A DNA stretch of 64,000 nt from Candidatus Gottesmanbacteria bacterium. Its GTDB lineage: Bacteria; Patescibacteriota; Microgenomatia; UBA10105; UBA927. This document shows, piece after piece, positions 16,204 to 58,886 of the stretch; position 1 is the first letter of the stretch, and each line of letters begins with the position of its first letter. The stretch spans positions 619,282 through 683,281 of the forward strand of contig JAHFKK010000001.1 in assembly GCA_023245335.1 (NCBI GenBank), written 5' to 3'. A model generated the notes under the pieces. The model did not search any database. It had not been told where the DNA came from and was given only the letters and a program-made list of their open reading frames with translations. A program made the position numbers and the translations under genes.

Positions 16204-16206
16204 AAG

Positions 16207-20191: not shown

Positions 20192-20194
20192 ACG

Positions 20195-41826: not shown

Positions 41827-42930
41827 ATGAATATTCTCATCCTCAACTGGAAGGATATAAAAAATCCTGATGTAGGCGGAGCTGAGATTATTTTGTACGA
41901 GTTGGCCAAGCGCCTCGTCAGAGAGGGTCACACTGTCACATGGTTTTGTCGGAGATTCGGTTTCGGGAAAAATACAGACATAATTGACGGTATACATATT
42001 ATCCGTCGGGGAAACAGGTTCACAGTCTATTGGGAAGCGTATCGGTATTATCAATCGCTCAAAAAGAAACCGGATAAGGTTCTGGACTGCATCAATACTA
42101 TTTGCTGGCAGACACCGCTTTACGTGCCAAACGAGAAACGGGTCGCGTATGTAAATCAGCTTGCGAAAGAAGTTTTTTTTTATGAGCTCCCGCCGGTTAT
42201 TTCTCATCTTGCATACTTCCTGGAACCTTTGGAATATCTCTTGTACCGCGGGACGCAATTCCTTTGTTACTCTGAAAGTGTCAAACGCGATATTGCTGGC
42301 ATCGGTATTCCGTCAGAGCACATTTCGACGTTTCCCATAGGCATTGATCACGCGAGGTATACGCCGGGGGTAAAGTCTAAAGATCCGCTATTCCTATTTG
42401 TCGCACGGCTCGCACGAATGAAGCGGCCGGACCTATGCATACGTGCGATGCGGCTGGTCGTAGATCATTATCCGAGTGCCAAACTAGCGATCGTTGGTTA
42501 CGGACCGATGGAAAGGGAACTGGATCGCTTGATACATTCCTGCAATTTGGAAAAGAACGTTACGTTGGTTAAAAAAGATGCACTTTTTTTTGATAAGCAC
42601 CCGAGTGATCAAAAAGTGAAACTTATGCAGCAGGCGTGGGCGCTTCTTTTGCCGTCAGTGAAAGAAGGATGGGGGATGGTGGTGACGGAAGCAGCGGCCT
42701 GTGGAACACTCTCTATTGTTACTCACGTAACTGGCCTTGTAGATTCGGTTATACATGATACAACTGGCATTGTGCTTTCTTCATCTCCAGATACACAAGA
42801 ATTAGCAGATGCAATGATTGACGTTATACAGTCTACGTCGCACAGAGGGACTTTGGCCCGCAACGCAGTTCGTCAGAGTCATATGTTTACCTGGGATAGA
42901 TCATACGATCTTTTTATGAAGTCGTTATGA
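41827..42930 (+). CDS. GT4 (group 1) glycosyltransferase
   Basis: 367 aa with 'MNILILNWKDIKNPDVGGAE' and 'EGWGMVVTEAAACG'. Confidence 0.7.
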   Translation: MNILILNWKDIKNPDVGGAEIILYELAKRLVREGHTVTWFCRRFGFGKNTDIIDGIHIIRRGNRFTVYWEAYRYYQSLKKKPDKVLDCINTICWQTPLYVPNEKRVAYVNQLAKEVFFYELPPVISHLAYFLEPLEYLLYRGTQFLCYSESVKRDIAGIGIPSEHISTFPIGIDHARYTPGVKSKDPLFLFVARLARMKRPDLCIRAMRLVVDHYPSAKLAIVGYGPMERELDRLIHSCNLEKNVTLVKKDALFFDKHPSDQKVKLMQQAWALLLPSVKEGWGMVVTEAAACGTLSIVTHVTGLVDSVIHDTTGIVLSSSPDTQELADAMIDVIQSTSHRGTLARNAVRQSHMFTWDRSYDLFMKSL

Positions 42931-43760
42931 AACAATCGCGCGTTTCGATTATCATTCCTGCTAAGAATTCGGCTACGATGCTTTCCGCATGTCTACAAAG
43001 TATTGCGGGGCAATCATACGAGGACATTGAAATTATTATCGTTGACAGTAATTCCGCTGATGGGACCAAAGCGTTGGCAAAAAAATACGGTGCGATTCTC
43101 ATGCAATATGTCCCGAAGGTACCGAAAGGAACATTTGATGCTCCCTATAAGCGAAATTATGGAGTTGCTCATGCGCACGGAACATATGTGTACATCGTGG
43201 ATGCAGATATGGAATTGCCCAAAGGACTCATAGCTGAAGCTGTGAAATTGTGTGAAAAAGGAGCAGATGCGGTGATTCTCCCTGAAGATTCATTCGGTAT
43301 CGGACCTTGGGCTCGCGCAAAGAATCTGGAACGACAATGTTACTGGGGGGACGATACGATAGAGGCTCCACGTTTTTTCAAGAAATCCGTTTGGCACGAT
43401 TTTGGCGGATTAGATGAGTCACTGGGCGGCGGCGGGGATGATTGGGATATGTATGAGAAACTGAAGTATGAAGGGTACCACGTTATGCGGACAAAACTCA
43501 AAGTCGCTCATAATGAAGGGAAATTACACCTATGGGCCCTGATGAGGAAGCGATTTATGTACGGTAGAGATTCCGTACAATACATTCGTAAGAGACCAAT
43601 CGCCGGATTTGTCAGTTACTTCCCGGTACGGAAAGCTTATATTAAAAACTGGAGATTATTTATAAGTAGACCGAAGGACTCTGTTTACTTTATAATCATG
43701 AGATCCGCAGAGTATTTGGCTGGTCTAAGTGGAATTATATTTTCGTATATTATTAAATGA
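42927..43760 (+). CDS. GT2 glycosyltransferase
   Basis: 277 aa with 'VSIIIPAKNSATML', 'IVDSNSADGT' and 'VDADMEL'. ATGA overlap with the upstream GT4. Confidence 0.7.
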   Translation: MKQSRVSIIIPAKNSATMLSACLQSIAGQSYEDIEIIIVDSNSADGTKALAKKYGAILMQYVPKVPKGTFDAPYKRNYGVAHAHGTYVYIVDADMELPKGLIAEAVKLCEKGADAVILPEDSFGIGPWARAKNLERQCYWGDDTIEAPRFFKKSVWHDFGGLDESLGGGGDDWDMYEKLKYEGYHVMRTKLKVAHNEGKLHLWALMRKRFMYGRDSVQYIRKRPIAGFVSYFPVRKAYIKNWRLFISRPKDSVYFIIMRSAEYLAGLSGIIFSYIIK

Positions 43761-44734
43761 ATATTTTTTGGAAAAACAAACGAGTATTAGTAACTGGCGG
43801 AGCCGGATTTATTGGCTCACATGTTGTCAAAGAATTGGTAAAAAGAGAATCTAAAGTAACGATTGTCATATCTCCAAAAACTTCGATTGTTCATCTAAAG
43901 CTTTTATATGGTCCGATATTAGACTTGATAAGTGTTAAGAAAGCCGATTTATTGGTTTTTACTCAATTTCTAAAGGTGACGAAAACACAGGAAATCGTAC
44001 TAAATTTTGCTGCGCTGGATGGAGGAGCCGAATTTAAGCAAATTAACGAAACTGAAATTTTTAGGATAAATACTCAGTTAATATTAAATCTACTTGAGAG
44101 CAGTAGAATAAATAAGATCGACAGAGTTTTGATCATGAGTTCTATAGACATATATCCTAATGACCTTAAATTTCCCATTAAAGAAGAACATGCACATCTA
44201 AATGATTTCGTCGAAAATATTAGTGGTTACAGGTGGTCAAAACGAATAGCAGAAATTGCGGCCAATCTTTACTATCGCAAGTACGGTTTGAAAATAGCTA
44301 TCGTTAGGGCGGGAAACGTTTACGGTGAAGATGATTATACGGGTATAGCTAAAAAAAGAATTATTCCAACCTTTATCAATGCTGCATTAGAGGATAAGGA
44401 CATAATAATTTGGGGAAATACGGATCTAAAAAAATCTTATCTGTACATTTCGGATTTGTCTAAAGCGCTACTTGATGCGATTGAGAAATATCCAGTCGGC
44501 GAACCCATCAATATTGCAAGTTCAGAATATGTTTCGTTAATAGATCTCGTAAAATTAATACTTAAACTTACACACGGAAAGAGCAAAATTATTCATAAAA
44601 TTAGCACTGTCCCAATTAAGGGCCTATTTAAACAATCTATATCATCAAATAAAGCACTACGCGTTTTGGGATGGAAACCAAAAATCTCATTAGCAAAGGG
44701 CTTACAAAAGACGATCGAAAGTTTTCGTTCATAG
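43757..44734 (+). CDS. Divergent SDR-family NAD(P)-dependent sugar epimerase/reductase (low-GC island)
   Basis: 325 aa with 'VLVTGGAGFIGSHVV' and the YxxxK motif 'YRWSK'. Codon usage is AT-rich. Confidence 0.55.
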   Translation: MNIFWKNKRVLVTGGAGFIGSHVVKELVKRESKVTIVISPKTSIVHLKLLYGPILDLISVKKADLLVFTQFLKVTKTQEIVLNFAALDGGAEFKQINETEIFRINTQLILNLLESSRINKIDRVLIMSSIDIYPNDLKFPIKEEHAHLNDFVENISGYRWSKRIAEIAANLYYRKYGLKIAIVRAGNVYGEDDYTGIAKKRIIPTFINAALEDKDIIIWGNTDLKKSYLYISDLSKALLDAIEKYPVGEPINIASSEYVSLIDLVKLILKLTHGKSKIIHKISTVPIKGLFKQSISSNKALRVLGWKPKISLAKGLQKTIESFRS

Positions 44735-44793
44735 TTGCGTACTCGTTATATTCGTAATCATACGTATAAATGTATTTGTTATAATGCGATGTT

Positions 44794-45738
44794 ATGAGAA
44801 GCTATTTTAAAAATAAACGTATATTAGTTACAGGTGGCATGGGATTTCTCGGTACGAACGTAGTAAACAAATTACTACAAAAGGGTGTAAACAGAGATAA
44901 CATTATTATTCCTAGATCATCTGACTACGATTTGCGAAATGCCACCAATGTCAAAAAAGTTGTTAAAAATATTGATGTAATTATCCACTTAGCTGCAAAA
45001 GTCGGTGGAATAGGCTTTAACAAAGAGCATCCAGCTGAAATGTTCTATGACAACTTAATTATGGGTATAGAACTGATGCATCAGGCGTATCTGGCGCACG
45101 TCCAAAAATTTGTTGCGGTAGGAACAATATGTTGTTATCCCAAATACACTAAAGTGCCTTTTAAAGAGGAGAATTTATGGGACGGGTATCCAGAAGAAAC
45201 AAACGCGCCATATGGTCTTGCTAAAAAAATGCTTCTGGTCCAATCTCAGGCGTACAGGCAGCAATACGGATTTAACGCGATTTTTCTCTTGCCAGTAAAT
45301 TTGTACGGATGCGGTGATAACTTCAACCCGGATTCTTCACACGTCATCCCGGCATTAGTTAAAAAGTTTTTTGATGCTAAGACGAAGGGACTTGCGAAAG
45401 TAGACGTTTGGGGCACAGGAAGGGCAACAAGAGAGTTTCTCTATGTCGAGGATGCAGCGAAAGCAATAATAATGGCAACTGAAAAATATAATAAGCCTGC
45501 ACCAATTAATATTGGAGCGGGTTTCGAGATATCGATCAAAGAATTAGCATATACGATCGCGAAAATTATTGGTTATAAAGGAAAGATAGTTTGGGATACG
45601 ACGAAGCCGGATGGGCAGCCCAGAAGAATGTTAGATACCGCCAAGGCACAAAAAGAGTTCGGTTTCAAAGCAACAACATCATTTGCTGAGGGGTTGAGGA
45701 AAACCATTACCTATTATGAAAAAGAATTTATTAGTTAA
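44794..45738 (+). CDS. fcl: GDP-L-fucose synthase (GDP-4-keto-6-deoxy-D-mannose 3,5-epimerase/4-reductase)
   Basis: 314 aa with 'RILVTGGMGFLGTNV', 'APYGLAKKMLLVQSQAYRQQYGFNAIFLLPVNLYG' and 'NPDSSHVIPALVKKF', which are hallmark Fcl segments. Confidence 0.85.
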   Translation: MRSYFKNKRILVTGGMGFLGTNVVNKLLQKGVNRDNIIIPRSSDYDLRNATNVKKVVKNIDVIIHLAAKVGGIGFNKEHPAEMFYDNLIMGIELMHQAYLAHVQKFVAVGTICCYPKYTKVPFKEENLWDGYPEETNAPYGLAKKMLLVQSQAYRQQYGFNAIFLLPVNLYGCGDNFNPDSSHVIPALVKKFFDAKTKGLAKVDVWGTGRATREFLYVEDAAKAIIMATEKYNKPAPINIGAGFEISIKELAYTIAKIIGYKGKIVWDTTKPDGQPRRMLDTAKAQKEFGFKATTSFAEGLRKTITYYEKEFIS

Positions 45739-46348
45739 GTTCGGACAATATAAATGTGATATTTTCCATAAGTTGAACTTTTCGTTCAAAAGAGGCAATA
45801 GTATTCTTGATGTCGGATGCGGCGACGGCGTTGATGCTGAAATATTCATCAAAGTGTACGGTCTGAAAGTGTATGCCCTCGATGTTTTCAAGCACGAAAA
45901 CATACGAAATATTAAAAGTCTCAAATTTACGAAGGGGAGCATATTCAAATTGCCGTTTGAGGACAAGAGATTTGATTATGTTTTTATACATGACGTCCTG
46001 CATCATATCGACGAAAAGACTCAAAGCACGAGTAAACACCTGAAAGCACTTGCTGAGTTAGAAAGGGTTTGTAAAAAGGGAGGGACCGTTATCATCATTG
46101 AGGCCAACAGGTTTAATCCTCTTACATACCCTCATATGGTTTTGATGATGGGGCACAACCATTTTCGGCAGAGTTATTTCGTTTACCTGTTAAATAAAGC
46201 ATTTGTACGATGTAGGTTTAAATACTTTGAAGCACATTTTTATCCACAAAGCTTTCTTGGACTATTCAAAGTGTATGAAAAATTTATGGAATTGCAGCCC
46301 TTTAAAGGGATTTTAAATTATAATACCGCATTCATTGAGGCTCGATAA
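45716..46348 (+). CDS. Class I SAM-dependent methyltransferase
   Basis: 210 aa with motif I 'ILDVGCGDGVDA' and motif 'FIHDVLHHI'. Confidence 0.6.
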   Translation: MKKNLLVKFGQYKCDIFHKLNFSFKRGNSILDVGCGDGVDAEIFIKVYGLKVYALDVFKHENIRNIKSLKFTKGSIFKLPFEDKRFDYVFIHDVLHHIDEKTQSTSKHLKALAELERVCKKGGTVIIIEANRFNPLTYPHMVLMMGHNHFRQSYFVYLLNKAFVRCRFKYFEAHFYPQSFLGLFKVYEKFMELQPFKGILNYNTAFIEAR

Positions 46349-46403
46349 ACTTTTTTACCCTGAATAAGAAGGTTCCAATAATTCGTAAACAAATCAACAT
46401 AAA

Positions 46404-47558
46404 ATGTATTTACAGAATAAGAGAATTGTTATCGTGTCGCATGAATATGCTACTGGACCTTCACATTCCTTAGAGGACTATCTTAGTTCTAAAGTAAAAA
46501 ACCTTCTTTTTATCGGCCATCCTTTTGTTTTTGCGCATGACACTAGGTCACATTATCGATTATATACGCATGGGGTTACGACACCGGTACGTAACCGATT
46601 CATATCGTTCAGCCAGAACCAAATAATCAGCATAATGAAGGATATCGTGCTGACCGTTATTTGGGTTCTAAACAACGGCAAATTCGATATATATGTTGGA
46701 GTTGATAATGTAAATACATTTGTAGGCATTTTTCTGAGAAAGATCGGGGTTGTTAAAAAGGTCGTATTTTATACAATTGACTATGTACCATTTAGGTTTA
46801 CCAACAAATTGCTAAATAGACTTTATCATAACCTCGACGTGTACGGAGTAAGACACAGCAATATCGTTTGGAACCTGTCGTCGTCAATGGTTGATGGCAG
46901 AGAAAAAGCCGGTCTTGAAAAAGCATTCAGATATAAACAAATCGTAGTTCCCGTCGGCACAGAAAGCAATGTCAAAGACGTCCCCCGGAAAAAAATTAAA
47001 AGATTTCATGTCGTACATATGGGGCATCTGATTAAAAAACAGGGGATTCAGCTGGTTATTGAGGCTATTCCGCTTATTATCAAGAAAATTCCGGAATTTC
47101 ACTTTGATATTATCGGCGGAGGTGACTACGAGGACTATTTGAAGGCATTAGCTCAAAAGTTAGGGGTGTCAAAGTACATTACATTTTACGGGTACATACA
47201 GAGTCATCAGGAAATAGAAAGAATGCTTTCTTATTGCGCTGTCGGGATAGCGCCGTACGTAGATAGCCCGGACAGTTACGTGAGATATGCAGACCCAGGC
47301 AAGGTAAAAGCCTATCTCGCAGCAAGTTTGCCTATAATAATAACCCGGGTCACCCCAATGGCGCATGAGATAGAAAGAAATAGATGTGGTATTTCTATAC
47401 CTTATGACAAAAAAATACTGGTAAAAGCCATCACTACATTGTTATCGGATGATAAGTTATTGTCGGAATTTAGACGCAATTCAAAGGCTATGGCAAAAGA
47501 GTATAGCTGGAACAAAGTTTTTGATCGGGCGATGGAAATTACTCTGCGCGCGGTCTAA
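46404..47558 (+). CDS. GT4-like glycosyltransferase (paralogue of 49419..50699)
   Basis: 384 aa. The GT-B C-terminal domain carries 'HVVHMGHL...GIQLVIEA' and 'AVGIAPYVDS'. The N-domain resembles the downstream paralogue. Confidence 0.65.
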   Translation: MYLQNKRIVIVSHEYATGPSHSLEDYLSSKVKNLLFIGHPFVFAHDTRSHYRLYTHGVTTPVRNRFISFSQNQIISIMKDIVLTVIWVLNNGKFDIYVGVDNVNTFVGIFLRKIGVVKKVVFYTIDYVPFRFTNKLLNRLYHNLDVYGVRHSNIVWNLSSSMVDGREKAGLEKAFRYKQIVVPVGTESNVKDVPRKKIKRFHVVHMGHLIKKQGIQLVIEAIPLIIKKIPEFHFDIIGGGDYEDYLKALAQKLGVSKYITFYGYIQSHQEIERMLSYCAVGIAPYVDSPDSYVRYADPGKVKAYLAASLPIIITRVTPMAHEIERNRCGISIPYDKKILVKAITTLLSDDKLLSEFRRNSKAMAKEYSWNKVFDRAMEITLRAV

Positions 47559-47565
47559 TTTTGTA

Positions 47566-47574
47566 TGCTATAAT
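47566..47574 (+). promoter_or_regulatory. Candidate extended -10 promoter element (TGcTATAAT) in a 128 nt intergenic gap
   Basis: The sequence 'tgctataat' lies about 112 nt upstream of the 47687 start. A Shine-Dalgarno 'aaggag' at 47676..47681 sits 5 nt before the ATG. Confidence 0.25.
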
Positions 47575-47686
47575 AATTTTCGTTCACAATCTCAAAATCT
47601 ATTTACGATAACGAGGTATATTCGTTTATCCCTACCCTATAGTTTAGATATTTAGACCTTTTGTGTTATCAATTTAAGGAGAATAT

Positions 47687-48349
47687 ATGTTTCAGAAAAT
47701 AAAGAATTACATTATAGAACATAGAGCTCAGGATCTATATTACTTGTGGACCTTATCCAAAGAGCTTTCCGGAGCAAAATCGGTCCTGGATGTAGGATGC
47801 GGTTATGATTCACCTCTGGCTAAGCTACGCAAATCGTTTACCAGCGAAGGAATCGATATTTTTAGGAGCAACATAATTCTAAGCAGGAAAAATCATATGC
47901 ATGACAGACATAAACTTGGAGATATTCGGAAGTTATCCCAAATTTATAAGTCGAATAGTTTTGACGCGGTAATAGCGCTTGACGTAATTGAACACGTGAC
48001 AAAAAAGGAAGCAATCAAACTGATTAAAAGTTGTGAGCAAATCGCCAGAAAGAAAGTTATATTGGTGACTCCAAACGGTTATTATGAACAGGGAGAATTA
48101 TTTCATAATCCTTATCAGGCTCATCATTCTGGTTGGGATAAGGAGACCTTAAGAAAATTGGGTTATCGAGTAAACGGTTTACGAGGTTTTAAATATTTAT
48201 GGGGTAAGAACGCGGATATAAAATATAAACCATGGTTATTTTGGGGATTTGTGACATTTATGTCACAATTTTTGTTTTATTATATTCCGGCCTTGTCATT
48301 TGATCTTTTGGCTACTAAGAATATCGTTAAAAGCGAGATCAGAGAGTGA
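47687..48349 (+). CDS. Class I SAM-dependent methyltransferase
   Basis: 220 aa with motif I '[13 protein letters not shown]' and '[11 protein letters not shown]'. Confidence 0.6.
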
Positions 48350-49413
48350 TACAAATAATGAAAAAGATTCTCATAACCGGTTCCGCGGGTCTAATTGGAT
48401 CTGAAGCCGTCAGATTTTTTTGCAACAAAGGATACGAAGTCATTGGCGTAGATAACAACATGAGACAATTTTATTTCGGCAAGGAAGCGAGCACCAAATG
48501 GAATGAACAATTACTAGAGGCGAAGTATCCTAAACAGTATCGAAATTATAGCGTCGATATCCGTGATGAAAAGCGAATTGCAAAAATATTTCAAAAAAAC
48601 GCCATTGATATGATTATTCACACCGCTGCACAGCCTTCTCACGATTGGGCGGCCAAGGAACCGATAACAGATTTTACCGTAAATGCACTTGGCACCTTGG
48701 TGCTATTAGAAAATTATAGAAAATATTGCCCAGAAGCAGTATTTATTTTCACCTCCACGAACAAAGTATATGGGGATATGCCAAACTTATTGCCATTGAT
48801 AGAGCAGGATTCTCGTTTTGAACTTCCTCGGACTCATCATTTCTATAAGGGTATAAACGAAACGATGAGCATAGATAATTCTAAGCATAGTATTTTTGGC
48901 GTATCAAAAGCATCGGCAGATTTATTAGTACAGGAGTATGGAAGATATTTTGGTTTAAAGACGGGCGTCTTCCGCTGTGGTTGTTTAACAGGCCCGGCGC
49001 ATTCAGGCACGCAACTCCATGGATTTTTAGCATATTTGGTTAAATGTATTAAAACGGGCAAAACATATACAATTTATGGTTATAAAGGTAAGCAAGTTCG
49101 AGATAATATTCATTCATATGATCTAGTTAATGCATTTTACTATTTTTATAAAAACCCATCATCCGGCGCCGTTTATAATATGGGAGGCTCAAGGCACTCG
49201 AACGTGTCTATACTCGAAGCCATAAAGAAAATCGAGAGAGGGCTTGATAAAAAAGGCAAGTTTCATTATTCGAATACCAACAGATCGGGGGATCATATCT
49301 GGTATATATCAGATGTTTCCAAGTTTCAAAAAAAATACCCCAAATGGAAATATAAATACGGCATTGACGAAATAATCGATGAACTTTGTATTGGCGTACA
49401 TACAGGGGAATAA
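48346..49413 (+). CDS. NAD-dependent epimerase/dehydratase, CDP-paratose 2-epimerase-like
   Basis: 355 aa with '[14 protein letters not shown]', '[10 protein letters not shown]' and the YxxxK motif '[10 protein letters not shown]'. Confidence 0.7.
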
Positions 49414-49418
49414 CGCTC

Positions 49419-50699
49419 ATGATTATGCGAGCAAAAAGACCTCATATTGGCAATCGAAATGATAAAATAAACCAGCCCCGACCTCTAAATAAAAATACTT
49501 CAGTCGTATTCGCAACATTCTCACTTCATATTCGAGGGAGAAGATTATCTAATAACGGCAACGTAGAGCCGTTACGAGATTTTCTCATCTCAAGGATTAA
49601 AAGGTTTGTGTTAATAGAACAACCTCTTCCTGGAAGCGATTACGTCATGCCCAAAATAGCAGTTTATGAGCACAACAGACTTGCAAAATTAACACGTTCT
49701 TCTTGGTGGCTATACATTCTCTATCCCTTATTGTCTTTGACTAATGCGAATGGAACCCAAGTCAGCTTTAAGATAAGGGATTTTTTAGCGGTACTTGATT
49801 GGTGCCTGCGAGAAAAATCTAAGATTGATTATATGATCGGAATGGAGTCTATCAATACGCTCGCAGGGATTATTTTACGGAAATTCAACATTGTCCGTAA
49901 AGTAGTCTATTATGAATTTGACTACTCCCCGAAGCGATATACACAGTCCTGGTTTAATTGGATTTATTTACAACTTGATAAATTTTGCGCTACTCACGCT
50001 GATTATATCTGGGAAGTATCGAAAGCAATGCATACCGCTCGAATAGACGCGGGATTTACTCCTCATAAGTCCGCATCAGTGATACATGTTCCTATCGGCC
50101 TTTACCCGCAGCAAATAAAAAACGTTCCAGAGCATATGAATAGGATGTTTAAGTTAGTATATATGGGAACGTTGGGGACCGATAACGGCCCTGAACTGGC
50201 GATAGAATCAATCCCAATTATCGCAAGGAAATTTCCTTCAGTTTGTCTCTACATCATAGGGGACGATAACAACAATCTAGTGAGGCTTACGGCTATAGTA
50301 CGAAGTCTGAAGATTGAACGAAATGTCAAATTTATGGGCCTCATGACTAATAGAGAAGAAATAGCAACTTTGATGAGTCGTATGTATATAGCGTTGGCCC
50401 CGTATAGGGCAATTTCTGGGTCGCCAAGATACTATGCCGACTCAAGTAAAATTCGTGCTTATTTTGGTGCAGGTTTACCCGTGATCACAACTGCAGTTCC
50501 GCCGTTGGGGATAGAGGCAGCTAAAAAGGGTGCGGCCCTCATAGTGAAAGACGACGCCCAAGATATCGCCCAAGCCGTAATAAAGCTTTTTACTAACCAT
50601 AAGAGATATTCCGACATGAGAAATAAAGCAGTTGAATTTGCCAAAGACAATACGTTCGAAAAAGGGTTTACACGCGCATTTTCCCAAATGACATTGTAA
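49419..50699 (+). CDS. GT4-like glycosyltransferase (paralogue of 46404..47558)
   Basis: The track ORF begins at 49386. The Met at 49419 is preceded by 'agggga' and clears the upstream stop. The C-terminal domain carries 'YMGTLGTDNGPELAIES' and 'ALAPYRA'. Confidence 0.65.
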   Translation: MIMRAKRPHIGNRNDKINQPRPLNKNTSVVFATFSLHIRGRRLSNNGNVEPLRDFLISRIKRFVLIEQPLPGSDYVMPKIAVYEHNRLAKLTRSSWWLYILYPLLSLTNANGTQVSFKIRDFLAVLDWCLREKSKIDYMIGMESINTLAGIILRKFNIVRKVVYYEFDYSPKRYTQSWFNWIYLQLDKFCATHADYIWEVSKAMHTARIDAGFTPHKSASVIHVPIGLYPQQIKNVPEHMNRMFKLVYMGTLGTDNGPELAIESIPIIARKFPSVCLYIIGDDNNNLVRLTAIVRSLKIERNVKFMGLMTNREEIATLMSRMYIALAPYRAISGSPRYYADSSKIRAYFGAGLPVITTAVPPLGIEAAKKGAALIVKDDAQDIAQAVIKLFTNHKRYSDMRNKAVEFAKDNTFEKGFTRAFSQMTL

Positions 50700-50711
50700 A
50701 ATAACAAATAT

Positions 50712-51599
50712 ATGAAGAAAGTTTTTGATTACGAAGAAACATTTATGGGGCTCACACCCGACAGATCCCCAGGTTTGGACAGAAGAATATATCAATACGA
50801 TCATAGGTTTAGGAAATTTGTTGACACCGTAAAATTAGCAAAAGGCAGAATAATCGATGTGGGTTGTGGGGGAGGCTCATTTATAGAAAGTCTGGCTAAT
50901 TATTATCCAAACGTACACATGTACGGCTGTGATATAAGTAAAAAAGCTATTTTTTACGCAAAAAAAACCGGCAGCGGGAAGGTTAACTATGGTGTGATTC
51001 GCAATGGTAAATTTCCTTATAAAGACGATTTTTTTGATGTGTTGATATGCGTAGATGTCTTGGAACATGTTCCGGACGTACATTTTTTTCTTAATGAAGT
51101 CCGGCGAGTGCTTAAGAAGAAAGGATTATTCTACCTGGCGGTTCCTTGTGAAGGAGAACCTCTGACTTATACGTGGTTCTTGCAAAAGATCGGTATCGGA
51201 GACAAACTAACGTTTAAACATTTTGGGCATATTCATCCGGAATTTACGCACCGATTTGTACGTAAACTACTTAACCAGCATAAGCTAAAGATAGTGGATA
51301 CTTCTTACGATATGCACTTTTTATCCCAAGTATTTATGCTGTTGCAATATTTTCTACCTAAGGAATTGCTTAATGTTGTATTGGGCAACAATAGGGCTGC
51401 TAAATACTATGATAAGTCGGTAGTGATAGCTGAAAATCAAAAAAAGCTGCAAAAGGATCCAATTTATATCTTTAGAGAAGTCTGGTTTGGAATTTGGAGG
51501 ATGTTGAGCCCGGTCAGCTTATTTGAATTCATTTTATTTAATAAAGTAAGTATCACAAGCTGGAGATTGCTTGCTCTCTCTCAAAAGCTTGAGAAATAA
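50712..51599 (+). CDS. Class I SAM-dependent methyltransferase
   Basis: 295 aa with motif I 'IIDVGCGGGSFIESL' and 'ICVDVLEHV'. Confidence 0.65.
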   Translation: MKKVFDYEETFMGLTPDRSPGLDRRIYQYDHRFRKFVDTVKLAKGRIIDVGCGGGSFIESLANYYPNVHMYGCDISKKAIFYAKKTGSGKVNYGVIRNGKFPYKDDFFDVLICVDVLEHVPDVHFFLNEVRRVLKKKGLFYLAVPCEGEPLTYTWFLQKIGIGDKLTFKHFGHIHPEFTHRFVRKLLNQHKLKIVDTSYDMHFLSQVFMLLQYFLPKELLNVVLGNNRAAKYYDKSVVIAENQKKLQKDPIYIFREVWFGIWRMLSPVSLFEFILFNKVSITSWRLLALSQKLEK

Positions 51600-51613
51600 T
51601 ACCAAGTGGGAAA

Positions 51614-54600
51614 ATGATTAAATATTGGACCAAATATAAAGAAATTTTCTTCCTTCTACTGATAAGTTTAATTCCCCTTTTGTGGTATGGGACCGGATCC
51701 CACCAGCTCATATTTAGTAATGACGTCGGTTATAATTTAAACCCGGTCGGATTATTCAAATCTAAATTGTTCGCGTGGGAAAGCACATTGAATTTCGGCT
51801 CCACCCAGGCGGAATTAACTGGTTTCATTCCCAATTTCAGTATAGAGGCTCTTCTGACGTTATTAAGTCATTCCGTTTTTAACGCTCAAAAAATATACGT
51901 CGTAAGTTGGTTTTTCACAATTATGATTGTCATGTATTGGTTTGTGAAAAAGATTCCGGTGTTTGCCAACAAACCCTATATGGCGTTTATGGCGGCTGTG
52001 CTCTTCGGTATAAATCATTTTCAGCTTTACGCCTGGAGAATATTTTGGAGAGGCTTATTTTCAACCTATGTGACCCTGCCGATATTTTTTATTTTATTGA
52101 CTGAATATTTTGAGGAGAGAAGAAGTCTTATACGGACGTCAATTTTTATTTCGCTTACATTATTTTTATTTAACGGCGGTGGATCTCCTCCGACATTTGG
52201 TGCCCTTATTTTATTGGTGCTGACTCTAGTTTTGTACTATTTCCTTTCCGGATTATTGCATAAGAGTGCTATACATTTCCTGAAGAAATGTACACTTCTT
52301 TTCATTGTCGCCGGGCTGTTCACGTTTTTAATTTCCTCATATTGGTTACTTCCATACATTTATTACGCGAAAAATTCTTATTCAACGATTGTTAGCGGGA
52401 TCGGGGGCGTGTTGCAGACACTGGCCTGGACTGACGTTGTGAGCGCTAACACGAGCATTTTAAATCTATTGAGAGCGAGCGGTACTGCTTTATGGGGTGC
52501 GGATGTGGCAGGATATGCACAGGTTTATTCTCAGAACCCGTTTTTCATTATTCTAAGCTATCTGGCGCCGGTATTAGCGCTGTCAGCAATTATCGTAGCC
52601 AAAAAAAGCAGCGAGAGGAAATACATTTATATATTTTCCGTATTTGTAGTCATTGCTGTGCTTTTTTCCGCCGGAACGCATGCTCCGTTGAGAGGATTTT
52701 ATGTGTTTTTACTGAAAACAATACCTGGGTATGTTATTTTTCGGTCTCCGATTTGGAAATTCGGCGGGTTATTATGGTTTTCATATGCAGTTTTAATCTC
52801 ATTTACTATTAGCACCTTCAAAGAACGGATATACGCGTATTCTGATCGAATGAAGGAGGTGAAAAAATTGATTTCACATCTCATTCCCGTAATGTTTCTA
52901 GTAATAGTTTTTGGCTACAATTTTCCATTTTTCAATGGAAATTTTTATAAGTGGAATGTGGGATTAGATATTATGGAGGAAATCCCCCAGTATGTTTTGG
53001 ATTTTGGAAAGTGGGTAGATACAAATCTAAATGACGACTCAAGAACATTACTTTTGCCCGATTTGAATACTAATTGGAGAGCTGAGGCGTATAAGTGGGG
53101 TTATTGGAGTTTAGGTCCTGCGACTTATTACGTAACAACGAAGAATACTCTCACAAACGAATCTAGCCTGATTAATAAAGAACCGCCAATAGTAGATAGT
53201 TTATATGCTGCGTTACGAAACAATGACCCCATCTGGCTAAATTTGGCTAAATTACTGAATGTCCGGTACCTGCTTTTACAAAACGATTTTTTTTACAATT
53301 TAAGTTGGCAACCTACCACACCCCCGTCGGTTTATAAGAGTATTCTCACAAACAGTAAGGACGTAGCACCGCTACAGACATTTGCCGAATGGGAATTATA
53401 TAAAGTAACGGGTAATACAACGCCGATTATATATACACCGACGGTACTAAATTTCGCCGGAACGGACGGGACTGCAATAAAAGACATATTGGAAATTAAT
53501 AGCAATAGGAGCCTTAGCGCAAGGCCGCTTATCGTATTCTTGGATGACTCCATAACAGACAAAGTGAAAAACAATCTTCCTGAGGGAAATAATGTAATAA
53601 TTCAGGCCAAGTGCGTATTGTGTAAACCTGAAGAAATTACTAGCGTGACAAATAGCATCTTTTCAGAAATACCCTATGCAAGTTTACTTCCCGATTCAGT
53701 CTTTTATTTTTATATTTCATGGAAGGAAGATAGGATGCTCAAAAATACCAGTAACTTTGCCGACCAAAGAATCGATGTCGACTTAGCCCTTGCGGACAAG
53801 CGTCTGTCAGAAATAAATCAGTTAATAAGCAGGAAGGATAGATCAGGATCGAACGATTTAATTAAACTTACCGCTCAGAGATATAGTAATTTACTTGCAG
53901 ATATTATGCGTCAGCAAACGAACCTTTCAGAAAGTGCAAGAAATGACTATCTTGTTCGTATTTTGGAATACCTAGAAGCGCAAAGAAGATATATACGTGA
54001 GATTAGTGATCAAAACATGATTTCTAAATTGATACCGGATCTATCATATTCTATTTTAAGGGCGACACAGGAAATTAAAACAAATGTATGGATGACAAAT
54101 GAGGAGAATGACCAAAAGTTTACCGTTAACTTAGACAAGGCTGATAATTATTCCTTAACTATCTCGAACAATAAGGGCAAGCAGACAAGCGTTTTTATCG
54201 ACGGCAATCGACAAACCGCCGAAGATACTGTTTTTTTAACGCAGGGTGTTCATCAGGTGGAATTAAGGAGTCCCAATGATAATCTGGTTGATAGTCAGCA
54301 CGCAACATCTAGCGGTCAATATGATCTCAACTATGGGGAAAAAGTAAGTTTCCCCGTTTCGGGATTCTCCGGTCAAAATACTTATCAAATCAAGTTTAAT
54401 TATAGAATCATTCAGGGAAAAGCTCCGAGTGTCATTCTTCACCAGGACAATGATGAGAAAAGTATCGGGACGGATTTGTCATCCGATAACAGTCTGAAAG
54501 ATGATGGAAAGTGGAATAATTTTACAAAGGTTTTTTCATCTAATGTAGATGCAAAATCTGGCGTTATAGATATTATAAAAATGGGTTTTGATAACAGCGA

Positions 54601-55141
54601 AAGTATATTTGAAATTAGTAATCTGACCGTTAATGAAATGGTAACGCCGCAATTGCTTTTCGTTCGAAAATCAGGTGGGTCTAGTCTTTATGCTCCACGA
54701 ATCACTTTCCAAAAACTTAGCCCAATCAGATATAGAGTCCATGTCGAAAACGCCACAGCTCCATATTTCTTAAATTTTGGCGAGCAGTTTGACAGGTCTT
54801 GGGAGATATATATGAAGAACTCTCAACCCCTCTCTCTGAGGGACGGTCATTTTACCTCGTATTTTAATGGTGATGTTAAAGAAATACGTCCGCAAAATAT
54901 TTTTCTTGACAGAGAACTTTTTACCGATGTGATGTCGAAAGCATCAGGCGGAAATTTTCATTTCCAGACCAACGGATTTGGTAACGGTTGGTACATTACT
55001 AAAATAGGAACCTATGACATAAGTATTGTGTATTGGCCTCAAGTATTTTATTATTTTGGCATTATTATTTCCGGAATAATACTTTTAATAAGTCTCGCGA
55101 TTTTATTTAAACTAAACAAATTAAATGATAAACAAAATTAA
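51614..55141 (+). CDS. Giant integral membrane protein (1175 aa): polytopic N-terminal domain, about 700 aa extracytoplasmic region, C-terminal TM anchor; putative GT-C-like enzyme of unassigned family
   Basis: Long uninterrupted ORF. About 12 N-terminal TM helices are followed by a large hydrophilic region. The C-terminal 'GTYDISIVYWPQ' plus the TM 'YYFGIIISGIILLISLAILF' echoes the YfhO C-terminal module. Confidence 0.6.
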   Translation: MIKYWTKYKEIFFLLLISLIPLLWYGTGSHQLIFSNDVGYNLNPVGLFKSKLFAWESTLNFGSTQAELTGFIPNFSIEALLTLLSHSVFNAQKIYVVSWFFTIMIVMYWFVKKIPVFANKPYMAFMAAVLFGINHFQLYAWRIFWRGLFSTYVTLPIFFILLTEYFEERRSLIRTSIFISLTLFLFNGGGSPPTFGALILLVLTLVLYYFLSGLLHKSAIHFLKKCTLLFIVAGLFTFLISSYWLLPYIYYAKNSYSTIVSGIGGVLQTLAWTDVVSANTSILNLLRASGTALWGADVAGYAQVYSQNPFFIILSYLAPVLALSAIIVAKKSSERKYIYIFSVFVVIAVLFSAGTHAPLRGFYVFLLKTIPGYVIFRSPIWKFGGLLWFSYAVLISFTISTFKERIYAYSDRMKEVKKLISHLIPVMFLVIVFGYNFPFFNGNFYKWNVGLDIMEEIPQYVLDFGKWVDTNLNDDSRTLLLPDLNTNWRAEAYKWGYWSLGPATYYVTTKNTLTNESSLINKEPPIVDSLYAALRNNDPIWLNLAKLLNVRYLLLQNDFFYNLSWQPTTPPSVYKSILTNSKDVAPLQTFAEWELYKVTGNTTPIIYTPTVLNFAGTDGTAIKDILEINSNRSLSARPLIVFLDDSITDKVKNNLPEGNNVIIQAKCVLCKPEEITSVTNSIFSEIPYASLLPDSVFYFYISWKEDRMLKNTSNFADQRIDVDLALADKRLSEINQLISRKDRSGSNDLIKLTAQRYSNLLADIMRQQTNLSESARNDYLVRILEYLEAQRRYIREISDQNMISKLIPDLSYSILRATQEIKTNVWMTNEENDQKFTVNLDKADNYSLTISNNKGKQTSVFIDGNRQTAEDTVFLTQGVHQVELRSPNDNLVDSQHATSSGQYDLNYGEKVSFPVSGFSGQNTYQIKFNYRIIQGKAPSVILHQDNDEKSIGTDLSSDNSLKDDGKWNNFTKVFSSNVDAKSGVIDIIKMGFDNSESIFEISNLTVNEMVTPQLLFVRKSGGSSLYAPRITFQKLSPIRYRVHVENATAPYFLNFGEQFDRSWEIYMKNSQPLSLRDGHFTSYFNGDVKEIRPQNIFLDRELFTDVMSKASGGNFHFQTNGFGNGWYITKIGTYDISIVYWPQVFYYFGIIISGIILLISLAILFKLNKLNDKQN

Positions 55142-55493
55142 TACATCATATAAACACGTCCTAGCGTATCTTGATACGTATCATGTTAAGTTTATATTTA
55201 TTATATTGAGCGTGTTAATGTTGGACGCGGTATATAAAATACCATACATTAATATTTTTTTCTCTCAGGAGCTGTTTTTTTTGCTCGAGTGGATCATTAT
55301 CATTAATGTATTAGAATTTTCTCATAATGTCTCGTTCTATATGGCTCTATTACTATTGGGTTTTGCCATGTTACTTATGATTACAAAAAGTGATCAGACC
55401 GCCGAAAAAATGGGGAATTTTGCTTTTATCGTATTTACGGTCGGCCTCGGGCAGGCTATTTGGTCTAATTTAAGAAAGGCTCCGGTGCTGTAA
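55125..55493 (+). CDS. Small hypothetical membrane protein (about 3 TM)
   Basis: 122 aa, hydrophobic. It overlaps the stop of the giant protein by 17 nt. No recognisable motif. Confidence 0.35.
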   Translation: MINKINTSYKHVLAYLDTYHVKFIFIILSVLMLDAVYKIPYINIFFSQELFFLLEWIIIINVLEFSHNVSFYMALLLLGFAMLLMITKSDQTAEKMGNFAFIVFTVGLGQAIWSNLRKAPVL

Positions 55494-55690
55494 TTTTCTC
55501 TTTTGTTTCTGTTCCTTTTAGTATCCTACTTCCTGATATGCATCCAGAACGAAGTTTTAAGTAGGCGGTCATCAGCTTGTTCGACTCGTACTTCTTCATT
55601 TTCGAAATGAATATAATATCGCAGATAATTGCATTATGTCATATACTTTATCGTATCAATTGTCTCGACACGAACATTTAGGGTAATCAT

Positions 55691-57751
55691 ATGAATCTGG
55701 TTATGAAAAAATTGTTATTAGTTTCAATATTTATTTTAGGTTTTCTTTTCCTGTTTTCTGGGATGGGCGTACACACGTCAGGAGATTGGCTATACCTGTA
55801 TCCGGAAACGGCAAAACAATTTTTGTTGACTCCAACGGTTTGGACATCACACTCCGGTCTGCTCGGAGGAGCGAACCTTTTTGTTACCGGGTTAGATTGG
55901 CTTTATAGTGCCTCCTCGAAAATTTTCCTCGTAGACCTTCATTTATCATGGTCTTTAATTGAACGATTACTTTGGTTTCTTCCGTTGTGGCTAATTGGGG
56001 CTGTCGGATCTGTCCGGTTCAGTAATAGGTTCAGTTCATCAGTCTTTGTATATCTTAGTTTACTATTTGTGTTTAACACGTATTTTCTTATGATTACCGG
56101 GGGAGGTCAGATGGGTGTGGCCTGGGGTTATGCGCTCGTACCGTGGGTATTAGACGGATTCTTTAATTTGTTCGATGCGCTTCGGATCAATTTGAAACAT
56201 TTATGGCACAAAACATATTTGGTGGCGATCGTATTTGGTATACAATTATTTTTTGATGCACGGATGGCGTACCTGACGCTGTTCGTAGTCGGTCTATATC
56301 TCATCTGGTTATTTGTAATTCGGGAGGCAGATAGATCTTTTCTCCTGCGTTGCTTGATAAGTTCTTTTATATTTGCGATTTCTGTTATCGGATTACATGC
56401 TTTTTGGCTGCTCCCGTTTATAAAATTTCCGGTTTCAATATCAGAATCGCTGGGTTCTGTATATACTTCTATAGATGCAGTTAAATTCTTCAGTTTTGCG
56501 GACTTTTCTCATGCGCTATCTCTCTTACATCCAAATTGGCCGGAAGATATTTTTGGAAAAACGTACTTTCTGCAGCCCGAGTTTCTTCTTCTTCCAATAA
56601 TTGCGTTTTCAGCTCTTTTATTTATTCGTGATAATTCCAAGGATAAGTGGCAGGAAATACAGATTCGTTTCTTCGCGATTCTCGCTATAGTCGGAGCCTT
56701 TTTGGCAAAAGGTACAAATCCACCGTTTGGCGGCCTATATGTATGGCTCTTTAACAGTATCCCGGGATTTGTCATGTTTCGAGACCCGACGAAGTTTTAT
56801 CTATTTATAGCCTTATCCTACTCAGTATTAATACCGTATGCATGTGCGCATATAAGTCAGGTAGTTTACACAGCCCTGAAACGCTCTGGTACACACATTC
56901 CGTTGCGAGTTCTGGCGGTTGGCGTTTTCGCCTTCTTTATCATAGGTTGGTCATATTTGCATAGAGAGTTATTACTTGGACGGCTTGGAGGTACGTTTAG
57001 ATCACAGGTTGTTCCGGTGGAATATATCCAACTGAAAGATTTTTTGACAGCAGATCTATCATACAAGCGTGTATTATGGGTGCCCTCAAAAAGCAGATTT
57101 GGGTTTTATTCTGATGATAAACCGGGTATATCGCTTCAAGCTATCAACGTAGCGAGCTCATCGTCGTTTATTTCCTGGATATCCGATCAGAAGCATGATG
57201 AAGAGCTTGCAAGGTATTCGGTTGCGTATATCGTTGTGCCGACGGATCCGCAGTCGGAATTATTTGTTAGTGATCGGAAATATGATCGTCAACTTCGGTT
57301 GTCAGTAATAAAGGCAATAGACGCGACCGGGAGATTCACACGCGTTACTTCGATACCTGACATTGCGGTTTACAAATCGAATAAATATTATGGGCACGCG
57401 TTTTGGGCTAATGATCCCAACATACCTGTCGTAATCAATCGTATAGAACCGACACATTACACGGTATCCATACCAAATCACAAGTCCTTAGAAGATTTAA
57501 TATTTTCCGAGTCGTTCGATCCTTACTGGGAGTTAATTATCAATGGTACTCGGATACGCCCGGTAAAAACAGTAGATGGTCTTCAGCAATATCGCCTTCA
57601 GGGCGGTGTGTATGGCCAGGCGATTATATATTACCGACCGCAGGGTTTTGAGTCCGTCGGGTTATGGATTTCAGGCATCACTCTTTTGACCATTGTCGTA
57701 TGGATTGGGTATGATAGTGTTATCTTATGGCACAAAAAGCGTGCGTCGTGA
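55691..57751 (+). CDS. Large integral membrane protein (686 aa) with C-terminal extracytoplasmic domain and terminal TM anchor; putative GT-C-like
   Basis: The N-terminal loop is loosely similar to that of the 1175 aa protein. The C-terminus 'GGVYGQAIIYYRPQ' is followed by the TM 'LWISGITLLTIVVWIG'. A roughly 200 nt AT-rich gap lies upstream. Confidence 0.55.
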   Translation: MNLVMKKLLLVSIFILGFLFLFSGMGVHTSGDWLYLYPETAKQFLLTPTVWTSHSGLLGGANLFVTGLDWLYSASSKIFLVDLHLSWSLIERLLWFLPLWLIGAVGSVRFSNRFSSSVFVYLSLLFVFNTYFLMITGGGQMGVAWGYALVPWVLDGFFNLFDALRINLKHLWHKTYLVAIVFGIQLFFDARMAYLTLFVVGLYLIWLFVIREADRSFLLRCLISSFIFAISVIGLHAFWLLPFIKFPVSISESLGSVYTSIDAVKFFSFADFSHALSLLHPNWPEDIFGKTYFLQPEFLLLPIIAFSALLFIRDNSKDKWQEIQIRFFAILAIVGAFLAKGTNPPFGGLYVWLFNSIPGFVMFRDPTKFYLFIALSYSVLIPYACAHISQVVYTALKRSGTHIPLRVLAVGVFAFFIIGWSYLHRELLLGRLGGTFRSQVVPVEYIQLKDFLTADLSYKRVLWVPSKSRFGFYSDDKPGISLQAINVASSSSFISWISDQKHDEELARYSVAYIVVPTDPQSELFVSDRKYDRQLRLSVIKAIDATGRFTRVTSIPDIAVYKSNKYYGHAFWANDPNIPVVINRIEPTHYTVSIPNHKSLEDLIFSESFDPYWELIINGTRIRPVKTVDGLQQYRLQGGVYGQAIIYYRPQGFESVGLWISGITLLTIVVWIGYDSVILWHKKRAS

Positions 57752-58668: not shown

Positions 58669-58886
58669 AACTTCAGGATGTCCTCTTTTTGGTCACACTC
58701 GCGGTGCTTTTGTGGGTCAGGAAGCCCCGGTTGATGGCCTGGGCGGGAATCGGAAGTCTCGTTTTGGCGATTCCGCTTTTTGCACTCCGCATATTTTTCA
58801 CGGCAGAGCGGCTGACCTGGTACGCCGCCGCATTTTTTGGCTTTTTCATCCTTATTTCATACTTCAGGCCCCATACGGTACAATAA
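58665..58886 (+). CDS. Small hypothetical membrane protein (2 TM)
   Basis: 73 aa. ATGA overlap with the uxs stop. Two hydrophobic helices. It ends 4 nt before the galE start. Confidence 0.35.
   Translation: MKLQDVLFLVTLAVLLWVRKPRLMAWAGIGSLVLAIPLFALRIFFTAERLTWYAAAFFGFFILISYFRPHTVQ

Follow-up and report, generated by a model that had tools for sequence, protein, structure and literature searches.

A low-GC block in the surface-glycan locus of a Candidatus Gottesmanbacteria genome: a probable exchanged cassette linked to two AftD-like membrane glycosyltransferases

O-antigen clusters contain low-GC, mosaic segments, which are ascribed to lateral transfer, the lower-GC donors being unidentified (PMC3715488). 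In replacement flexible genomic islands, differing gene sets of the same function occupy the same position, mobility genes are absent, and exchange is ascribed to homologous recombination in the conserved flanks (PMC4033161, PMC4898812, PMC11898729). Here we describe an AT-rich block of roughly 14 kb in a 64,000-nt stretch (the window) of the genome of a Candidatus Gottesmanbacteria bacterium (GCA_023245335.1, contig JAHFKK010000001.1, positions 619,282 to 683,281, forward strand); the window DNA on either side of the block is referred to as the flanks. The block encodes nucleotide-sugar enzymes, glycosyltransferases and methyltransferases, followed by two large membrane proteins that resemble the mycobacterial arabinofuranosyltransferase AftD in fold. 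We propose that it is probably a variable, serotype-like cassette of an otherwise conserved surface-glycan locus, in which recombination with lower-GC members of the lineage brought in at least the enzyme genes and the AftD-like gene in place of an earlier cassette.

As in the O-antigen and capsule clusters of Enterobacteriaceae (e.g., Salmonella rfb), sugar-pathway, glycosyltransferase and processing genes form a block between conserved genes, with a GC content far below the average. However, the host is a small-genome member of the Patescibacteria, the locus is known from its genes alone, and the processing enzymes are two AftD-like GT-C proteins. Family scans of the island proteins gave no hit to a Wzy/Wzz or O-antigen-ligase family, and Wzx-type proteins are encoded in the flanks (839-2287 and 38671-39966); the role of Wzy could be taken by the GT-C proteins. 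With the replacement flexible ("glycotype") islands of aquatic bacteria and archaea, the locus shares a fixed site, variable content, deep alleles, atypical composition and discordant phylogeny. Those islands are defined within one species, whereas the genomes compared here are genus- or family-level relatives with flank proteins 52-76% identical, and replacement within a species is our inference.

The gene content and order given in an initial annotation, which had been made from the sequence alone, were confirmed. The block, its genes in order and the genes at its edges are the following.

43631..57544, no strand: compositional island, from the change-point model, codon usage and dinucleotide signature
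38671..39966, + strand: Wzx-type flippase, conserved left flank (Polysacc_synt E 9e-14)
42927..43760, + strand: GT2 glycosyltransferase at the left edge (GC content at third codon positions, GC3, 0.414; last 60-codon block 0.32)
43757..44734, + strand: extended SDR nucleotide-sugar enzyme, 325 amino acids (aa), SDR325; solved GDP-mannose 3,5-epimerases nearest, E 9e-25
44794..45738, + strand: GDP-L-fucose-synthase-like (Fcl-like) 3,5-epimerase/4-reductase, 314 aa (NF047922 302 bits; PDB E 3e-65)
45716..46348, + strand: class I S-adenosylmethionine (SAM) methyltransferase, 210 aa (Methyltransf_11 E 3e-16)
46404..47558, + strand: GT4 glycosyltransferase "GT4a", 384 aa (homolog 54% identical in L022)
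47687..48349, + strand: class I SAM methyltransferase, 220 aa, MT220 (homologs 59% in L024, 55% in L010)
48346..49413, + strand: CDP-tyvelose-2-epimerase-like SDR, 355 aa (351 from the ATG at 48358), SDR355; PDB 9rl0/1orr
49386..50699, + strand: GT4 glycosyltransferase "GT4b", 437 aa from TTG (426 from the ATG at 49419); homologs 47-48% in L024 and L010
50712..51599, + strand: class I SAM methyltransferase, 295 aa, MT295 (homolog 51% in L024)
51614..55141, + strand: AftD-like GT-C membrane glycosyltransferase, 1175 aa, by AlphaFold (AF2) model, Foldseek and family profile
55125..55493, + strand: small membrane open reading frame (ORF), 122 aa, recurring after the AftD-like gene in relatives
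55691..57751, + strand: second, shorter AftD-like GT-C glycosyltransferase, 686 aa, by AF2 model and Foldseek
57727..58668, + strand: SDR313, conserved right anchor, 64-73% identity in relatives (GC3 0.548, host-like); named as UDP-glucuronate decarboxylase family by one source

The compositional shift is directly observed. GC content in 1-kb steps was 0.334-0.411 across 44-57 kb and 0.455-0.519 everywhere else in the window, and a maximum-likelihood model with two change points placed the block edges at 43,631 and 57,544, with GC contents of 0.487 in the left flank, 0.379 in the block and 0.494 in the right flank, and a log-likelihood gain of 266 over a uniform model. The 2-log-unit support intervals were 43,431-43,655 for the left edge and 56,833-57,633 for the right edge. 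As a control, sixty 13.9-kb windows of the left flank ranged in GC merely from 0.483 to 0.493, and GC was also 0.49-0.51 in DNA fetched from beyond the window (9 kb on the upstream and 4.7 kb on the downstream side). The initial annotation would have taken a uniform profile as refuting its AT-rich island with shifted codon usage; the profile is not uniform, and both the island and the shift are real. The coordinates proposed for it (43,757-57,751) are correct as gene boundaries, but the compositional change points lie about 130-200 nt away from them.

At the level of genes, GC3 was 0.29-0.41 in all 11 island genes and 0.47-0.60 in flank genes, with the intermediate GT2 at 42927-43760 (0.414) as the sole exception. 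The lowest GC contents were those of the 122-aa ORF (0.336) and, among the large genes, of SDR325 (0.339). Synonymous codon usage differed between island and flank with a summed chi-square of 586 (41 degrees of freedom), compared with 49 for one half of the flank vs. the other, and the favored codons turned A/T-ending in the island (TTA in place of CTT for Leu, AGA in place of CGG for Arg, ATT in place of ATC for Ile, and GTT in place of GTC for Val). The dinucleotide relative-abundance distance to the flank reference (x1000) was 51-65 for island segments and 13-33 for flank segments. Island proteins were enriched in K, N, I, F, and Y.

A one-genome-per-species scan with an alignment of 12 AftD-like proteins yielded 16 loci, and individual homolog look-ups added more; the fetched loci or contigs, mostly from related genomes, carry L-numbers. 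An AftD-like gene followed by a 686-like gene, directly or after one to three genes, lies upstream of the conserved right block in about ten related genomes (L011-L014, L017-L021, L024, L026/L028, L027). This right block (SDR313, GalE, a split GT4, a hexapeptide acyltransferase and a GT2) is kept in L011-L014, L017-L021 and L024-L028. On the left, the flank GT2 at 39923 is conserved (54% identity in L015/L016), and homologs of the GT2 at 42927 (31-35% identity) stand directly upstream of a GT4a-like gene in the same two loci. Since the AftD-like/686-like pair has the same site in relatives, the two large island genes occupy an ancestral position, and the proposal that the block is cargo added to an ancestral locus does not hold; the pattern is one of replacement of a variable cassette at a site where the pair was already present.

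The genes upstream of this pair vary from genome to genome. L028, the nearest flank relative with an AftD-like gene, has rmlABCD, a MTase_21 gene and a GT2, two DegT aminotransferases stand with rmlA/C and heptose-type genes in L022, a glycerophosphotransferase gene (Glyphos_transf) is present in L027, and L025 has other membrane proteins without an AftD-like gene. The AftD-like alleles are 18-43% identical. In the closest relatives, identity falls in steps across the right island edge, from 52-76% for flank proteins to 42-48% for 686-like and 18-28% for AftD-like proteins. Low GC is not intrinsic to these genes, as AftD-like and 686-like genes share the GC3 of their neighbors in L013, L014 and L025-L028 (0.49-0.58 throughout in L028). 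In L018 and L020, the AftD-like/686-like genes are 5-9 GC points below the downstream block, a smaller dip suggesting that exchanges recur. The named relatives of island and flank proteins alike were metagenome-assembled genomes (MAGs) of Candidatus Gottesmanbacteria, Microgenomates or "Patescibacteria group". Separately, several third-party-annotation MAGs titled "uncultured Gammaproteobacteria/Pseudomonadales" (L006, L009, L011, L012, L014, L016, L017, L021) carry a Microgenomates-type AftD-like locus with its synteny, and these titles look like misassigned taxonomy.

The phylogenies of different parts of the locus are incongruent. In a tree of concatenated flank proteins, the window grouped with L025, L026 and L027, and in the tree of the 686-aa protein it grouped with L006 and then with L025-L027. 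In the AftD-like tree, by contrast, it fell into a separate deep clade with L024, L022 and L010. L024 was nearer to the window than L026 in 500/500 bootstraps of the AftD-like tree, vs. 0/500 for the flank and 0/500 for the 686-aa tree. Of all genomes in the flank tree, L024 lies farthest away (37-46% identity of flank proteins), but for the AftD-like protein it is the closest (43%). The relatives on the AftD side are distant genomes of 33-41% GC, whereas those of the flank and the 686-aa protein have 40-47% GC.

The enzyme genes point in the same direction. L024 (locus GC 0.33) has homologs of GT4b (48%), MT220 (59%) and MT295 (51%) in linked order beside its AftD-like gene, and the same linkage is present in L010. 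GT4a has its closest homolog among the fetched loci in L022 (GC 0.34; 54%), and SDR355 is 66% identical to a homolog in L007 (GC 0.37). The cassette genes are thus related to genes in more distant members of the lineage that have a lower GC, and the island enzyme and AftD-like genes have at least two or three different sources. Because the AftD-like allele travels with GT4b, MT220 and MT295, it is probably matched to the glycan of the cassette. Horizontal acquisition, as the initial annotation had argued from composition, is therefore supported by the dinucleotide signature and the incongruent trees, but an origin in a different lineage is not, and the 686-aa gene follows the flanks. The expectation that best hits of island genes would come from another lineage was not borne out, since island and flank relatives both belong to Microgenomates/Gottesmanbacteria/Patescibacteria and the incongruence lies within this lineage.

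The junctions have the form that exchange between homologous loci would leave. On the left, the stop codon of the GT2 at 42927 overlaps the start of the next gene (ATGA at 43,757), and on the right the stop codon of the 686-aa gene lies inside the SDR313 gene, with a 25-nt overlap (57,727-57,751). Both change points are intragenic, at the 3' end of the GT2 gene and in the 3' part of the 686-aa gene. Intragenic change points together with overlapping-codon junctions are expected from homologous-locus recombination and not from an inserted mobile element, so that this would be the likely mechanism. The block also differs from a classical integrative genomic island. No tRNA gene was found in the 64 kb, flanking repeats were limited to chance-level matches of 16-35 nt, and neither an integrase nor a transposase was present, all island ORFs being assigned to glycan functions or membrane proteins. 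A search for promoter-like or terminator-like sites found no enrichment.

Both junctions are contained in a 311-kb ENA contig that agrees with the window at 100% identity from position 41,614 onward to the end of the window, the right junction is spanned independently by a 21-kb Logan contig, and an island protein is listed for a 1.218-Mb NCBI contig as well. Records of the proteins of this organism come only from NCBI, ENA and Logan. A few contigs start near the edges of the block: a Logan contig at window position 43787, which is 30 nt into the first island gene; an ENA contig of a different sample at 56814, 19 nt outside the right support interval; and the contig of a related species 79 nt upstream of its SDR313 homolog (L030 1-79). 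These assembly breaks could reflect strain heterogeneity or a coverage change at a variable region.

Several points weigh against recombination from lower-GC members of the lineage. The trees are simple distance/neighbor-joining trees of 13-20 taxa, and the host composition is known over about 78 kb. The 686-aa gene shares the AT shift (GC3 0.405, uniform over the whole gene) but is congruent with the flank phylogeny, so that either it came from a close low-GC relative or part of the AT shift arose in place; lower-GC close relatives do exist (L006, 686-like protein 55% identical, GC3 0.43; L027, 48%, GC3 0.40). There is no close donor, as the best matches to island genes are 37-66% identical (at most 41% for the 1175-aa protein), and this implies either an old transfer or an unsampled donor. 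Deep clades exist in the AftD-like family, two of whose members share a contig in at least one case (P0005, P0023), so part of the incongruence could reflect hidden paralogy. All recovered copies of the organism are 100% identical, leaving no within-species variation of the cassette visible, and the nearest other flank relative is 83% identical (protein) on a 2-kb contig. The evidence that the methyltransferases act on sugars is indirect.

Some of these points would suit a segment that was never transferred, i.e., an ancestral, fast-evolving part of the locus that drifted AT-rich in place, for example by AT-biased mutation under weak selection on poorly expressed glycan genes rich in membrane-protein codons. 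The AT-shifted 686-aa gene on the flank phylogeny, the lower GC of the pair in L018 and L020, the K/N/I/F/Y-rich island proteins and the observation that O-antigen processing genes are often the lowest-GC genes of their clusters, still without explanation (PMC3715488), all agree with such drift. However, the shift is strongest at third codon positions and extends to the dinucleotide signature, the soluble SDR325 (GC 0.339) is shifted as much as the membrane proteins, many other GT-C membrane genes of the locus have host GC, no such dip is present at these genes in the closest relatives, and the edges are sharp, within a few hundred bases. The grouping of the AftD-like, GT4b and methyltransferase genes with distant low-GC genomes (500/500 bootstraps for AftD) is also difficult to obtain by drift, and we regard this explanation as rather unlikely.

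The reading of the initial annotation, a foreign cargo island from a different lineage that was inserted into the ancestral locus and added functions to it, is improbable. It would account for the strong compositional discontinuity and for the merely distant relationship of each island gene to anything known, but it is largely refuted by the related genomes that already hold AftD-like and 686-like genes at the site. Further, all homologs found were from Microgenomates/Gottesmanbacteria/Patescibacteria-type genomes, the window lacks a tRNA gene, integrase, transposase or flanking direct repeat, and the junctions have overlapping codons with change points inside genes. Least of all do we expect an assembly or binning artifact, in which a low-GC fragment of another organism was joined into the contig. 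The contig starts at 43,787 and 56,814, at or near the edges, and 79 nt before the SDR313 homolog of a relative would be in line with a false join, but the 311-kb contig spans both junctions and the 21-kb contig the right one, the protein also occurs on the 1.218-Mb contig, genes overlap frame-consistently at both junctions, and a 686-like gene followed by SDR313 is the normal order in relatives. Cassette replacement within the lineage thus remains the explanation that we favor.

The two large membrane proteins were proposed in the initial annotation as candidate polymerases or transferases, and this was borne out at the level of fold, as both are predicted to be AftD-like GT-C proteins. Mycobacterial AftD has a GT-C core with 11 transmembrane (TM) helices, an essential D41 and a C-terminal region, TM12-16, that binds acyl carrier protein (ACP) (bioRxiv 10.1101/2019.12.22.885152). 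The AlphaFold model of the 1175-aa protein (predicted local distance difference test score, pLDDT, 85.7; predicted template modeling score, pTM, 0.81) consists of about 11 N-terminal TM helices, an alpha/beta domain, a helical insert (residues 672-824), beta-sandwich modules and one C-terminal TM helix. Its top Foldseek matches were AftD structures (6wbx/6w98/6wby; E ~1e-14, probability 1.00), followed by yeast STT3 and, locally, ArnT. The beta-sandwich domains (~833-1140) match structures of carbohydrate-binding module (CBM) family CBM16 locally, and the C-terminal TM helix is at 1142-1174. The AF2 model of the 686-aa protein (pLDDT 90.2) has one beta-sandwich (~549-648) and a C-terminal TM helix at 650-685, and AftD was again the best Foldseek match (E 8.5e-8, probability 1.00), followed by STT3, ALG9 and ArnT. 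The two proteins are 27% identical over 198 residues of the core (E 2e-16), and both models have the N-terminal multi-spanning GT-C fold with about 11 TM helices, as in AftD.

The similarity to AftD is also detectable in sequence. A profile of 39 homologs of the 1175-aa protein matched mycobacterial AftD chains with an E of 1e-5, and several of these homologs carry precomputed PF11847 (GT-C_AftD) or DUF5667 annotations, while PF11847 at its gathering score matched neither window protein. An Asp in the first outside loop is invariant, as Asp37 in the 39 homologs of the 1175-aa protein and as Asp32 in 38 homologs of the 686-aa protein. By extrapolation, Asp37 falls within one residue of AftD D41, the hidden Markov model alignment to AftD beginning four residues later; further A2 and A3 profile searches to align the two residues gave no AftD alignment. 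By fold, then, both proteins are AftD-like, which is a statement on predicted structure and not a claim of AftD orthology.

The locus proteins resemble AftD (PDB 6W98, 6WBX, 6WBY) in the GT-C core and the extracytoplasmic beta-sandwich, carbohydrate-binding-like modules, their first-loop Asp lies near the position of D41, and by analogy with AftD their acceptor may be a glycan instead of a peptide. However, sequence identity to AftD is 10-12%, and TM12-16 are missing in both proteins, whose models end in a single TM helix, so there is no equivalent of the ACP-binding domain. No gene of the decaprenyl-phospho-arabinose (DPA) pathway was recognized among the window ORFs. Unlike AftD, the 1175-aa protein has the helical insert 672-824 (window 53627-54085), which is also absent from the 686-aa protein; it lies between the GT-C soluble domain and the beta-sandwiches and matches DUF5667 weakly (E 5e-5). 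In a search against 1.84 billion cluster representatives, nothing exceeded 41% identity to the 1175-aa protein, although 559 clusters matched at E<=1e-30. A 1002-aa protein encoded downstream was considered as a second AftD-like paralog and rejected, having neither similarity nor a Pfam match.

In five loci (L022, L024, L026/L028, L027 and L023, the last being a second contig with the same AftD-like protein as L022), the gene after the AftD-like one is a short ORF of 108-141 aa. Its counterparts in four of these loci are at the following positions.

L022 13530-13874: small ORF counterpart
L024 13141-13566: small ORF counterpart
L026 3443-3823: small ORF counterpart
L027 6129-6455: small ORF counterpart

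Conservation is weak, the 122-aa ORF of the window being 27% identical to that of L022, with a common "LPYINL" motif. A GtrA-type flippase was rejected, as no Pfam match was obtained even at E<=5; the ORF is possibly a subunit or flippase of the GT-C machine.

GT-C glycosyltransferases are known as parts of multi-component systems, in which a GT2 polyprenyl-phosphate sugar synthase and a flippase supply the GT-C enzyme, which modifies a glycan on the outer side of the membrane and in some cases has a C-terminal CBM (PMC11127046, PMC8035078). Similar to the GtrABC, GT136 three-component and YfhO/CsbB (Gram-positive) systems, the flanks here encode polyprenyl-phosphate-sugar-synthase-like GT2s and many GT-Cs; in contrast to them, there is no GT2 synthase inside the island, the 122-aa ORF has no GtrA match, and two GT-Cs stand in tandem. 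A further parallel lies in methylation. The 3-O-methylmannose polysaccharide of mycobacteria is made in the cytoplasm by ManT together with MeT1 and MeT3, which are encoded in one small cluster. This combination of a glycosyltransferase with several SAM methyltransferases in a small cluster recurs in the block, where it is, however, tied to extracytoplasmic GT-Cs and has no detected specific sequence relationship to the mycobacterial pathway.

Three of the enzymes are SDR proteins with different nearest relatives. SDR355 is nearest to CDP-tyvelose 2-epimerases in the PDB (9rl0, E 3e-41; 1orr, E 3e-34), and SDR325 has a weak nearest resemblance to solved GDP-mannose 3,5-epimerases (E 9e-25). 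The Fcl-like protein matches PDB GDP-fucose synthases over its full length (E 3e-65), and scored 302 bits on NF047922 (NCBIfam) vs. the equivalog cut-off of 500. GDP-mannose 4,6-dehydratase (Gmd) is not encoded in the window, which is the scope of this negative, as a copy elsewhere in the genome is possible; the best SDR score on TIGR01472 was 50 bits vs. a cut-off of 415.

The two GT4s are paralogous, as had been noted, being 30% identical over their full length (E 2e-56). However, the alternating methyltransferase/GT4 genes are not repeated modules in the sense of a local duplication. GT4a (54%) and GT4b (47-48%) are both nearer to orthologs in other genomes than to each other, and the three methyltransferases are 28-33% identical among themselves over partial lengths. 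Compared with characterized enzymes, the methyltransferases gave generic class I matches to unnamed methyltransferases and no close characterized relative, and GT4a gave just generic Gtf1/GlgA matches at an E of about 1e-3 among solved or characterized enzymes. A methylated glycan, as the initial annotation had suggested, is plausible from the SDR and methyltransferase set, but its suggested identity as methyl-fucose is not supported, because there is no gmd in the window and the methyltransferase substrates are not tied to any characterized enzyme; the Fcl-like protein is also below its cut-off, and the other SDRs are (weakly) GDP-mannose 3,5-epimerase-like and tyvelose-epimerase-like. From the SDR and methyltransferase family matches, a methylated glycan with epimerized or deoxy sugars is a reasonable inference.

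These assignments suggest a possible route, in which substrates, methylation target and step order are all predictions. In the cytoplasm, the three SDRs (GDP-mannose 3,5-epimerase-like, Fcl-like and CDP-tyvelose 2-epimerase-like) would remodel nucleotide sugars, the old paralogs GT4a and GT4b would add sugars to a lipid-linked acceptor, and the three class I SAM methyltransferases would methylate the lipid-linked intermediate. The Wzx-type flippase of the conserved flank (38671-39966) is a candidate for exporting the lipid-linked product. The 1175-aa and 686-aa AftD-like GT-Cs might then extend, branch or transfer the glycan outside the membrane, using polyprenyl-phosphate sugars supplied by flank GT2s such as the AglJ/PpgS-like 37994. 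The beta-sandwich modules of both GT-Cs may hold the acceptor glycan, a function also proposed in AftD. Since the AftD-like allele is co-inherited with GT4b, MT220 and MT295, this enzyme may recognize the cassette-specific structure.

The cell surfaces of Patescibacteria are little known, though host attachment and phage escape must depend on them. The cassette described here resembles an O-antigen serotype determinant in its behavior, with a link to a very diverse, uncharacterized family of AftD-like GT-Cs, and it may have a role in surface or antigenic diversity. Cassette exchange as a principle is already well established in other bacteria, and its extension to Patescibacteria is the added part; if confirmed, surface-glycan cassette exchange extends to the candidate phyla radiation, and the conserved flanks (GT2 39923 ... 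SDR 57727) could be used as anchors for metagenomic "glycotype" typing. A bolder and more doubtful possibility, which we put forward tentatively, is that a Microgenomates-type glycan machine (an AftD-like GT-C of ~1100 aa, a micro membrane ORF and an AftD-like GT-C of ~680 aa) is lineage-wide and fixed in position, and is re-programmed by swapping sugar-pathway/GT4/methyltransferase cassettes among distant members. In these ultra-small, probably episymbiotic cells, attachment to hosts or susceptibility to phages would then be governed by methylated "glycotypes". If true, surface diversity of the O-antigen kind would here rely on AftD-type enzymes in place of Wzy/WaaL.

The block is part of a much larger locus. 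The whole window is one glycan locus with many GT2/GT4 genes, two Wzx-type flippases and about 20 GT-C-type membrane proteins of the YfhO, PMT_2, GT87/MptA and PTPS_related families. It continues 9 kb upstream (L029 1-9162; a GT2-GtrA fusion, two PMT_2, MptA_B/GT87 and PTPS_related) and 4.7 kb downstream (L003 16275-20942; the 1002-aa protein, PMT and GT4), and glycosylation takes at least 78 kb of the 1.218-Mb contig. The sole minus-strand block of the window, 14509-21922, encodes two PMT_2 proteins, a YfhO protein and a 575-aa protein, and has host-like GC. Three ORFs of the window have no Pfam match at E<=0.01: 12401-14131 (+), 576 aa; 20195-21922 (-), 575 aa; and 34656-35822 (+), 388 aa.

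To the right of the island, a 73-aa ORF (~58665-58886) that falls into no assigned family lies between SDR313 and GalE, and an ORF of equal length has the same place in L026/L028 and L030. The split GT4 of the right block consists of an ORF with the N-terminal domain only (59840-60454, 204 aa) followed by a complete GT4 (60458-61588, 376 aa); the two are kept as separate ORFs in all relatives examined, with 45-61% and 52-62% identity, respectively, in the nearer ones. Farther downstream, the 1002-aa predicted membrane protein (63051-64000, on into L003 15325-18333) follows the GT2 at 62210, and a protein in the same place is present in L025, where it is truncated.

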